64,000 bases of DNA, taken from assembly GCF_057098645.1 (NCBI RefSeq), contig NZ_JBXSPU010000002.1; one strand, given 5' to 3'. The position numbers were made by a program. Shown here piece after piece: positions 15,001-18,000 of this stretch (position 1 is the stretch's first letter; every line of letters starts with the position of its first letter). Source of the DNA: a plasmid.

Positions 15001-18000
15001 AACGGATCGCTTTCATCGATATGGATGGTGGCAATGTGGCGCTCCAGATTGTTCTTCATTAGATTATTTTCTTCGTGCAATTCATTGAACCAGTCTTGAA
15101 TTGCCTGCACTAGTTCGGGGTGCTTAACTGCATTGACCGTTCTGAATAAGGATGAAATGGCAATACTGACATCATCAAACCCTCTTATTACGGAACGATT
15201 ACGTGCCGTGAGAAATCGGTTAAAGTCTGGCGTGCCTGGGGTAATAGTTACTGTAGCCATGCCGTAATGTTCATTTTTACTTTGCACGACCCTACGGCTA
15301 TTATCGGACGCATGAGGGGAGCGGGTATTTACGTCAGGTACCTTATGCTCGCTTTCATTCATTGTTACATCGGTCATTGTGCCACCTCTGATTTTGAGTA
15401 TTGACGGACTTTTCGTCCCAGTTCGATATATGCAGCATGGTAGAACTCAAGTAATTCTCTGTAGGGTTCCAGTAATCCCTCCGTTTTTTCAATCATTTCA
15501 TATTCCCAGCTGGCATGATTAACAAAGCAGCTTTTCGTATATTTTCCACTTTTCATCGGTGAAATCCGTTTCGACATGTGACTAGGTGGCCTGTTTTTAT
15601 ACGGGCTAAACTGATGCCAGGTTATGGTGACTTTCCTGGCATTACCAATTAGCTCAACTTTTGGTGCATATGAACCCAGATACTCCTTCTTTAGAGTTTT
15701 GCTATCCCTGGGTAAATTCCTCTCAATGTGATTCCGTTCTTTCCACTCGATCCAATAATTGGTGATCAGTTCTTCAGCCTCTTCTCGAAGAACATCGATT
15801 TGTGAGCGCAATAAAGTACGTGAAATCTCCAATGACTTTAATAGCTTCGATTTAGACATGGGGCCTCCTGATGTGAAATCACTATACCGAAGTGATTTTC
15901 AATTTTTTTTCACGAACGGGACTTTTTTCTGTGAATTTTTTCGAGAATTTTGCATGGCAAATTTAAGAATGGAGGAAGCACTGAGAGTGAGTGACATCAG
16001 ATGTAAACGGGAACGGCCAAAAGGTCCGCATTTTATCGTGGAAGAAAAGTAACTTTTCCAGCAATGCTTATTGCTGAGATCGTGATCTGAAAAGAACTGT
16101 TTTACCTACTAAGTTATACATCTATCTAGTGCCACTTTTTAAAGGAAAGTGACCCTATGATTTTGACGCATAGTGCCACTTTTAAAAAAAGTGACCCTAT
16201 GTCGTGATTACATAGGGTCACTTTTCATCAAGAAGTGACCCTATGTCGATGGTGCATAGGGTCACTTTTCAGCAAAAAGTGACCCTATGTAGTAGTCATG
16301 TTAAACAATCGAAAAAATAATCATGCTTACGCGCATTTTTCCCTAAGGTTATTGCTACTTAATGCCGATAACGACTCAGGCTTTGAGGTTTTTTTATACG
16401 GTTCACATTTCGTTAGCAAGGTCAGGGTTTTTTGATAAAATTCTGGTTAGTTTGGTTAAAAAGTGTTACAAGTAAGGGTAATGGCTGAAAGGTTAGTTTT
16501 AAGGTTCAAAGCGGCAGTATTAAAATTCCAAAAGTTACTTTTCATCCTTCAGAATCCAGACCTTAATTTCATGTAGAAGATTCGTACAATTGTATTGGCG
16601 CAAGGACAATCCGCACATGTCAGAATCAGATAACATCACGCGTAATTTACTCGGTAAACTATTACGTACCGAGATTTCGATTATTCGTAGTTACCGTGCC
16701 TTCTTAATGTTATTGCCTCTTCATGGATCTTCTAAGTATCAAACTGGATCACCACTCCTCCAACGCCGACTATTTGGTAATGGATTTGGAGCTATGATTG
16801 ATAATGCATTTGAAGTTGAAACTCGGCCAGGAAGCTTCCTCGTTCCTCGTTCTTTAAGTAAAGAGATCTCTTGGGACAAATTCTTTGTAGCTGTAGTTGA
16901 TGGCGACACTAACGTCATTCGAGAATATGACAGTGAAGATACTGACTTCGGCATTTACAATGAAGGTGAAAAAGTAACTTTGCTCAGCGGGCAGGAGGAA
17001 TTTTATAATCCGAGAAAGATCCAGCAACTACGTTCTAAGTGTGTAGACATTCAAAATGATTACTTAATGCAAGTTTTCTTTATGTCAATGCTTGCACCTG
17101 AGTTTGTTAGTATCTTTTTTGGATTAAAACCTGCCACCGTTGAAGCAATAAAAGATGTCGGGATGTCATCACTTAAATTAATTAATGACATCGTTCTCTT
17201 TCCACGAACAATTCCCTTTACGCCAGGTCTGGGGGATGATAGTGCCACGCTAAAATCAAAGGTTTTTGCTTGGGCATACGAAATATCTGCCGATATTCGT
17301 TTGGGTAAAGTTAGTGACGATTTAATGGAATTACTGCGTTACGACACTATGTTTACATGCCACCGTCAGGATGTGTTCAATACTTTGGCAAATAAAGTGC
17401 TCTTGAAGGATTATTGAATATGGCTAAAGTCGATCAAACTAAAGCTAACATGTTATTGAGCGCTACAAAAACGATGTCTCTTGGTGCCAATAAAAACTCC
17501 ATAAGGATACTCTATGGAAATCATGTTGCCGAAAATATAGACTTCAGGTCTGAACCTCAACAAAACTTTAAAAAAGGGATTCGTGGGTGGAGTCGCCGCA
17601 CGGATAACCGCAGGGCTTTTTCTGCGGTTATTGATGTCGCTGTAAACTATTTCGGTTTTGATCCTATTCACCCGGAATCCAGTTTTCGAAATATTGACTT
17701 CAACCGCATCATGAGTGTGCTGCATAACCTTGGATATTTCGTCTGCGCTCCTGAGGTAAATAAAATCATTGAGATTCTAACGTCAATGAAAGAAATCGAG
17801 GAGCTTGAAACTTGTGCGAAATGTAAGCGCCCTTATATTGTCCCGTATACCAATGATACTCATTGTCCTCGATGCAGATTGTCGTCCACGTCATCGGCAA
17901 TAGCACGGTATTCCCAGGAAGAGTTAGATTAGCTGTTATTTTATGTGAGTGATTTAAGTAGAGGTCAAAATTCCCAGGGATGTTTCTTCGTTAACTACAA

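Follow-up and report, generated by a model that had tools for sequence, protein, structure and literature searches.

Described transfer origins and the locus studied here

We analysed a stretch of 64,000 nt from a plasmid (NCBI RefSeq assembly GCF_057098645.1, contig NZ_JBXSPU010000002.1; this whole stretch is referred to as the window) and concentrated on an array of palindromic repeats at positions 16125-16289, in the non-coding gap between the divergently transcribed genes traH and trhR. The array is a candidate for part of an origin of transfer (oriT). The closest described system is the oriT region of the IncHI1 plasmid R27. In 2002 Lawley et al. reportedly cloned the intergenic region of R27 between the genes for mating-pair formation (Mpf) and coupling and those for DNA transfer and replication (Dtr), and the cloned region is said to have been mobilised by R27. 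The MobI-like gene of R27 directly adjoins the oriT locus (PMC10838148), and its product TraH has been called a MobI-like mobilisation factor in the literature. [quoted passage not shown] MobI of IncC plasmids is 'thought to bind' oriT. The IncA/C protein self-associates and binds the C-terminal domain of the relaxase TraI, and swapping this domain retargets TraI to a foreign mobI-oriT pair irrespective of the catalytic domain (bioRxiv 2025.04.21.649884). In the MOBH2 system of the gonococcal genetic island (GGI) nicking takes place 3 nt 5' of an inverted repeat of 32 nt, which has to form a hairpin (PMC6736028).

The window comes from an R27-type IncHI1 plasmid. The region studied shows 100% identity to many ∼190-kb tet(X4)-type IncHI1 plasmids, for example pE-T306-tetX4, and R27 itself carries the same four units with one base substituted, located between its annotated mobI (traH, R0122) and its trhR homologue. 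In the window the traH-trhR gap measures 757 bp and the array starts 266 bp upstream of the start of the 161-aa MobI gene (15859, minus strand). An earlier note on this DNA had proposed the array as a candidate oriT or relaxosome assembly site, and the near-identity to the R27 array, the shared gap and the MobI and MobH neighbours all support this proposal. As the oriT of R27 had already been placed in the traH-trhR gap, the oriT reading is mostly a rediscovery of a locus known from R27-type plasmids. We go one step further and, on balance, lean towards the array being a phased platform for relaxosome assembly, which would form the protein-binding core of the IncHI (MOBH11) oriT and would be bound by TraH/MobI, by an adjoining AcaB-like protein or by both.

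Architecture and uniqueness of the array

The array spans 165 bp and consists of eight 15-nt half-sites in alternating orientation (CATAGGGTCACTTTT / AAAAGTGACCCTATG), which make up four palindromic units with the consensus CATAGGGTCACTTTT - N5 - AAAAGTGACCCTATG. Unit 1 (16125-16159) is proximal to traH/mobI and degenerate; its left arm TCTAGTGCCACTTTT (16125-16139) and its right arm GAAAGTGACCCTATG (16145-16159) are separated by an inner spacer of 5 nt. Unit 2 (16169-16201) has the arms CATAGTGCCACTTTT (16169-16183) and AAAAGTGACCCTATG (16187-16201) and an inner spacer of 3 nt. For units 3 and 4 the inner spacer is again 5 nt. Unit 3 (16211-16245) is a perfect 14-bp inverted repeat with the arms CATAGGGTCACTTTT (16211-16225) and AGAAGTGACCCTATG (16231-16245), and the trhR-proximal unit 4 (16255-16289) is a perfect 15-bp inverted repeat with arms at 16255-16269 and 16275-16289. 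The spacer between units is 9 nt each time. The units start 42, 44 and 44 bp apart and their centres are 43, 43 and 44 bp apart.

The earlier note had described four tandem palindromic units at 16126-16289 with 42-44 bp phasing, and both statements agree with our coordinates. It had also reported two perfect 13-bp inverted repeats: two units are indeed perfect, with arm lengths of 14 and 15 bp instead of 13. The inner gap of 7-9 bp given there has to be corrected, as it amounts to 5-7 nt with that note's own arm definitions. The left arms of units 1 and 2 represent a variant of the half-site, (C/T)(A/C)TAGTGCCACTTTT, in which GTGCCAC replaces GGGTCAC. This variant arm is kept in the IncHI1, IncHI2 and Photorhabdus relatives.

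The motif is strongly concentrated at this locus. Allowing up to 2 mismatches, the 13-mer AAGTGACCCTATG has 8 matches in the window compared to 1.14 expected, and 7 of the 8 lie in the array; a count of 8 was reached in 0 of 100 shuffles. We rebuilt the whole plasmid (190,689 bp) from the window and the matching record, and the 15-mer (up to 2 mismatches) had no match outside the array in the rebuilt sequence. With respect to this reconstruction, the last 60 bases of the window (63941-64000) mismatch the record CP090284.1 and the other junction matches; either the window would therefore come from a related, non-identical plasmid, or it is in the resistance region that the two records diverge. 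A scan of 5,426 complete Escherichia coli genomes gave 272 genomes with matches. The array occurred once per IncHI-type plasmid, there were four chromosomal copies, and the scan gave no sign of a separate mobilisable element carrying the array. Among the matches listed for the 14-mer AAAGTGACCCTATG in genome contigs there were single chance matches only, in unrelated taxa.

Conservation among relatives

To compare the gap among close relatives we used an alignment (A1) of the window, pNDM-CIT, an IncHI1B-typed Salmonella plasmid, R478 and another IncHI2 plasmid. Across IncHI1 and IncHI2, 109 of the 120 arm columns (91%) are invariant, compared to 12 of the 45 columns (27%) in the loops and between the units (Fisher p = 1.4e-15). 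The window and R478 differ at 7% of the arm positions and at ∼60% of the spacer positions. The conservation extends into the 14 bases left of unit 1 (16111-16124), where 13 of the 14 columns are invariant, and the array together with this flank forms the largest conserved non-coding block of the gap.

More distant lineages were collected via TraH homologues. All of them keep the gene order trhY-trhR, gap, mobI, orfX and traI, and every one carries a tandem palindrome array with an arm sequence of its own. The arrangement of an array upstream of a MobI-family gene is the same in 8 lineages. The Photorhabdus plasmid (L135; MobI 81% identical to that of the window) has three units with the IncHI arms. 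L136 (55%) has four units with the arm CACAGTGTAACTTTT, L137 (40%) has four units for which the arm is not clearly defined, L138 (37%) has six units with the arm TTATGTTTAACTTTT and the Klebsiella IncHI1B-type lineage (L007 and L009; 35%) has three units with the arm TCATTAGTACTTTT. An Aeromonas plasmid (MobI 29% identical) shows different palindromes at a spacing of ∼106 bp. The inner part of the unit, ACTTTT-N5-AAAAGT, is constant in all lineages; the outer 8-9 arm bases are lineage-specific and identical among the units of one plasmid. The centre spacing across the lineages is 43-45 bp with a single exception of 56 bp, which adds roughly one helical turn. Of the 8 loci measured, 7 have 252-285 bp between the start of mobI and the end of the array that faces it; on the other side, the distance to trhR ranges from about 206 to 340 bp. 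Taken together, the identical arms, the free spacers and the conserved phasing point to phased sites for a sequence-specific, dimeric protein on double-stranded DNA.

Two of the loci deserve a separate description. The contig L138 (Logan ERR13348610, 3345 bp) holds the largest array seen, with its six units at 457-705 and an intact mobI adjoining. At 1430-2899 of the same contig the AcaB-like gene is split into fragments of 74 and 108 aa, and a 213-aa protein containing a helix-turn-helix stands in the place of traI. L138 may be a decaying or mobilisable derivative. The second locus is an IS1-flanked remnant of the IncHI1-type traH-trhR region inside the IncHI2 plasmid pNDM-M121 (L004, NZ_CP083586.1, 1501-2213). 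The neighbouring genes are truncated and three units are left; exactly one 44-bp unit was lost, presumably by recombination between repeats. A tblastn search with the TraH of the window hit two places in NZ_CP083586.1, and pNDM-M121 probably also has a traH region of its own.

Flanking genes and candidate binding proteins

The earlier note had placed the array between gene starts at 15859 (minus strand) and 16617 (plus strand). Both are correct and belong to the 161-aa gene and to trhR, respectively. On the minus strand the first gene of the H (relaxase) operon is traH (15374-15859; R27 R0122), whose 161-aa product is a mobilisation factor of the MobI family: TraH matches Pfam MobI PF19456 over its full length (E = 1e-21) and is labelled 'MobI(A/C)' by PGAP. 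It is followed by the gene of a 240-aa protein of the R27 R0121 family (14655-15377) and by traI (11609-14644), which encodes a MOBH-family relaxase of 1011 aa as annotated. TraI scores 241.7 bits against NCBIfam MobH NF041494 (cut-off 200; E = 1e-71) and MOB-suite types the plasmid as MOBH. Beyond traI, on the same minus-strand side, lie a coupling-protein gene and a DUF4400 gene. On the plus strand the R operon begins with trhR (16617-17417), followed by the second activator gene trhY (17420-17932); both are named after the annotation. Pfam gave no match for TrhR and nothing significant for TrhY. To their right are TraF-like and TraH-like pilus assembly genes. In R27 the tra operons F, H, AC and Z depend on both TrhR and TrhY for their activation, and trhR itself is under silencing by H-NS at 37 °C (PMC7366339).

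By analogy with IncA/C, TraH/MobI is the obvious candidate for the protein that binds the array. Its AlphaFold2 model has high confidence (predicted local distance difference test, pLDDT, 91) and consists of a long helical hairpin and a small beta-sheet. The second candidate is the 240-aa protein, which has no Pfam or NCBIfam match. Its model (pLDDT 78) shows two tandem beta-alpha-alpha modules and shares the fold of AcaB, a ribbon-helix-helix (RHH)-like activator of the acr1-acaDC promoter that stands in mutual activation with AcaCD (PMC8373056). The sequence identity to AcaB is 7% and there is no profile-level match; because of this missing relation at the sequence level, the function of AcaB cannot be transferred to the 240-aa protein from the fold alone. 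The 240-aa-protein gene lies between mobI and traI in every lineage examined, including an intact copy in Aeromonas and the decayed copy in L138. Since it is kept in every lineage, synteny does not tell which of the two proteins reads the array. TrhR and TrhY were considered as binders as well and judged unlikely, because they activate four operons and the arm motif is found at one locus only.

Candidate nick region and direction of transfer

The near-invariant block of 29 nt at 16111-16139 (AAGTTATACATCTATCTAGTGCCACTTTT), which is made up of the terminal arm and its flank, is possibly the best candidate for the nick region, judged by its conservation. The block (…AAAAGTGGCACTAGATATATGTATAACTT) is the same in R478 and the Photorhabdus plasmid and largely the same in L136. 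In the Klebsiella lineage ATGTATAA is kept beside the last unit; this is a single 8-mer and we estimate the probability of such a match by chance, with its position considered, at ∼0.1, so that it serves as a lead at most. We also tried AGATAGAT as a nick motif common to IncHI and IncC and rejected it, as 25% of the dinucleotide shuffles share an 8-mer.

If the gonococcal system is taken as a guide, the nick would be expected on the plus strand of the window, 5' of unit 1, so that the trhR side would enter the recipient first and the relaxase operon last. The same holds for plasmid F, in which the relaxase operon enters last. The gene content points in the opposite direction: small open reading frames (ORFs) with hok that resemble a leading region lie beyond the relaxase operon, and the right flank is mixed. 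These are ∼30 small ORFs on the same strand, oriented towards oriT, at 129,917-146,979 of CP090284.1 (L012 318-17380), left of the window start. Among them are genes for a Hok toxin, an HNH endonuclease, a PAPS-reductase-family protein and a RelE/ParE toxin. Between these leading-region-like genes and the array lies the relaxase operon, 16 kb in length.

Proposed mechanism and points that weigh against it

We propose that the array would work as follows. Dimers of a plasmid-specific protein would bind the four palindromes, about four helical turns apart, on double-stranded DNA; the candidates are TraH of the MobI family and the adjoining AcaB-fold 240-aa protein, and both may act. The bound proteins would form a phased nucleoprotein scaffold, and this scaffold would draw the MOBH relaxase TraI to a nearby nick, for which the block at 16111-16139 on the traH-proximal edge is the best candidate. 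Plasmid specificity would come from the outer 8-9 arm bases, with the inner ACTTTT-N5-AAAAGT shared family-wide. This model is favoured by the position of the array in the gap that bears the R27 oriT, its association with mobI, its uniqueness in the plasmid, the restriction of selection to the arms, the constant phasing and the way in which the arms co-vary with the accessory proteins. The distance of the array from the promoter-like regions and the behaviour of MobI and TraI in IncA/C fit it as well.

Several observations weigh against the array being the core of oriT. The literature places the oriT of R27 in the gap as a whole, and it is from the sequence that we infer the array to be its active part. 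The mapped oriT of IncC has a different repeat layout and contains no phased palindromes. No DNA-binding fold can be recognised in the model of TraH, and a comparison with the PDB gave nothing significant; for lack of such a match, the fold has no bearing for or against DNA binding. The other candidate binder, the 240-aa protein, has the fold of a transcription activator and a regulatory role for the array consequently has to be weighed as well. Furthermore, Lawley et al. 2002 are said to have found only traH, traI, traG and traJ to be essential on this side, which would make R0121 dispensable. As for the nick block, it is not conserved in L137 or L138, and its resemblance to the IncC core is not significant given the share of shuffles that also have an 8-mer in common.

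Alternative explanations

The strongest alternative is that the array is regulatory. It would then consist of sites for the AcaB-fold 240-aa protein, which would activate the divergent promoters of trhRY and/or traH or relieve their silencing by H-NS, and the oriT function would lie elsewhere in the gap or merely overlap the array. TrhR and TrhY would switch on the H operon, thereby the AcaB-like protein, and this protein would in turn boost trhRY, similar to AcaB and AcaCD in IncC. We regard this as possible, though on the unlikely side. The components of such a loop are at hand: the RHH-like AcaB activates a master-activator operon with mutual activation (PMC8373056), the H operon depends on TrhR/TrhY, and trhR is silenced by H-NS at 37 °C (PMC7366339). 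An anti-silencer could well make use of a row of sites that covers 165 bp of AT-rich DNA ahead of a silenced promoter, and the gene of the 240-aa protein stays beside the array in every lineage. By our own reading, the residues Q and N of its second predicted beta-strand are kept where the IncHI arms are shared and differ where the arms are different (A3; few lineages).

The position of the array fits this explanation less well. A promoter-like sequence, TTAGCA-17-TAAAAT with an extended TG, lies at 16413-16441 on the plus strand within a conserved block of A1; identified by its match to the consensus, it is probably the trhR promoter. The array is ∼125 bp away from its -35 element and ∼230 bp away from the probable traH promoter. 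At 125 bp or more from either promoter-like region it is far away for a classical activator. It is also the distance to mobI that stays constant across the lineages, whereas trhR is found at varying distances. No comparable phased array is present upstream of acr1 in IncC, and the 240-aa protein lacks a sequence-level relation to AcaB. Regulation and transfer are not exclusive, however, since many accessory proteins of oriTs, including those of the classical systems, also regulate the adjacent promoters.

A second alternative is that the units act as hairpins in the transferred strand. A MOBH relaxase would recognise the hairpin beside the nick, as the gonococcal TraI does, and the additional hairpins could protect the 5' end or prime the synthesis of the complementary strand in the recipient. 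Each unit is an inverted repeat of 33-35 nt and thus near the size of the inverted repeat on which cleavage of the GGI oriT depends (PMC6736028). Four hairpins are predicted on both strands, and they are far better than those of shuffled sequences (z = -7.9 for the plus strand and -10.0 for the minus strand). Some of the arm substitutions preserve G.T pairing on one strand, but by our reading these wobble-preserving substitutions favour neither strand consistently. The pattern of conservation argues against a purely structural role: the units of one lineage share the arm sequence and differ in the loops, whereas pure structure would let the units drift, and both the 43-45-bp spacing and the single 56-bp step would be meaningless for independent hairpins. 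In addition, MOBH2 systems have one inverted repeat and no MobI (bioRxiv 2025.04.21.649884). We therefore consider the hairpin explanation improbable.

The array could further consist of replication iterons or form a partition centromere. Tandem units of ∼43-44 bp which each contain an inverted repeat are also found in sopC of plasmid F, whose 43-bp repeats each contain one. The earlier note had set an iteron array aside on the grounds that no rep gene is adjacent, and the whole plasmid bears this out: the record has parM at 4.3 kb and its rep genes at 45.6, 156.5 and 174.3 kb, all more than 40 kb from the array at 113.4 kb, and none of these genes has the arm motif in its vicinity. The constant companions of the array in every lineage are mobI and trhR, not rep or par genes. 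Iterons were rejected because the units are palindromes with no rep gene within 40 kb, and a sopC/parS-like centromere because no par operon adjoins and the motif is found nowhere else in the plasmid; either role is very unlikely. A structured RNA gene or a transcription terminator, suggested by the strong predicted hairpins of the region, can practically be discarded, as the best Rfam 15 match has 28.8 bits where the gathering score is 100 and the matches are without exception spurious microRNA-like hairpins, no terminator-like site was found, no promoter-like site reading into the array was found (TAGTCA-17-AATAAT at 16293-16321 starts just past the array and reads away from it) and the loops and spacers are unconstrained.

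The relaxosome platform and the regulatory role can also be combined. The array could be the specificity module of all MOBH11 origins, read jointly by TraH/MobI dimers and the AcaB-fold protein, such that one complex positions the relaxase at a nick in the adjacent block and switches on trhRY. We put this forward tentatively and regard it as doubtful in its full extent. If true, it would amount to a combined relaxosome and feedback switch, in which the outer arm bases define mobilisation specificity groups among IncHI-like plasmids.

Other repeats in and around the gap

Apart from the array the window contains a dispersed 15-nt palindrome, GAAAAGTWACTTTTC, with about 14 sites compared to 0.26 expected by chance. 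The sites start at positions 354, 472, 9578, 11308, 16044, 16529, 16969, 19607, 25144, 25226, 29761, 36511, 44653 and 46167. Two copies flank the array within the gap: GAAAAGTAACTTTTC at 16044-16058 on the traH side, which is conserved in A1 and had been noted before at about 16044, and CAAAAGTTACTTTTC at 16529-16543 on the trhR side. The palindrome is not confined to promoters; several copies are located between convergent genes or within genes, namely the coupling-protein gene and trhR. The inner part of every arm of the array is identical to its half-site, AAAAGTnAC, and the palindrome is unchanged in the Klebsiella lineage, where MobI is 35% identical. Its spread across the plasmid recalls the reported plasmid-wide effect of HtdA in R27, although this is speculation.

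A second conserved non-coding block lies on the trhR side of the gap at 16395-16480. It holds the promoter-like TTAGCA-17-TAAAAT as well as a lone sequence resembling a half-site, AAAAAGTGTTACAAGTAAG, with 82% complementarity to unit 1 in its terminal arm. Copies of the similar GTAACACTTTT occur in L138.

Novelty and significance

The locus itself is known. What appears to be unreported, in the literature searched, which did not include the original mapping study of the R27 oriT, is the family-wide 44-bp-phased architecture with lineage-specific arms, the difference in selection between arms and spacers and the finding that the R0121 family shares the fold of AcaB. Multidrug resistance in typhoid as well as tet(X4), mcr and NDM are carried to a large extent by IncHI plasmids. 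These additions are incremental but useful, as they reduce an unmapped MOBH1 origin to a short list of testable elements: an array of 165 bp in which constraint is limited to the arms, two named candidate binders, of which one is now seen to be AcaB-like, a candidate nick block of 29 nt and natural specificity variants of the arms from five lineages. If the array is the specificity determinant, it would predict which IncHI-like plasmids mobilise one another and would be a target for blocking transfer.

Comparison with known systems

There is a resemblance to the classical oriTs. Plasmid F with TraM (sbmA-C) and TraY, R388 with TrwA and RP4 with TraJ and TraK all have phased sites for small oligomeric proteins, often of the RHH type, between the nick and the relaxase operon. 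The protein families involved are unrelated to those discussed here and the relaxases are HUH enzymes, whereas MOBH relaxases have an HD domain.

With the AcaB-regulated acr1-acaDC locus of IncC the window shares the AcaB fold. Both plasmids are of the MOBH1 / MPF-F type and both use a two-protein activator (AcaCD in IncC and TrhR with TrhY in R27). The gene acaB, however, is located near traN and not beside mobI or traI, and the region upstream of acr1 contains isolated palindromes and no phased array. In the IncC plasmid peH4H (L140) we observed a perfect 24-bp palindrome, CAAACTTTCACATGTGAAAGTTTG, at 43591-43614 upstream of acr1-acaDC and a partial copy 81 bp away (43511-43533).

The oriT of the GGI resembles the locus in that it depends on a MOBH relaxase, lies between divergent operons and has an essential inverted repeat of similar size to the units described here. 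It differs in having one inverted repeat compared to three to six in the IncHI-like arrays, and there is no MobI partner in MOBH2. Furthermore, it is the hairpin structure that is recognised there, whereas the arms of the IncHI-like units are constrained in sequence.

The oriTs of IncA/C and SXT/R391 (MOBH12) are likewise AT-rich, repeat-laden cis sites that precede a MobI-family gene, and they need MobI and a MOBH relaxase. The IncC oriT, in contrast, lies directly against mobI, and its repeats are short inverted repeats and direct repeats of 11-14 bp instead of palindromes phased at 44 bp. No significant sequence similarity was found between the IncC oriT and the IncHI array or its flank, and the C-terminal domains of the MOBH11 and MOBH12 relaxases are dissimilar. 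The IncC oriT also lies ∼46-50 kb from traI. This limits the earlier suggestion that MOBH systems place oriT next to the relaxase operon: the rule that holds for MOBH1 is 'upstream of mobI'. The closest match is the oriT region of R27, which has the same locus, the same genes and one base changed, so that nothing material differs in the sequence.

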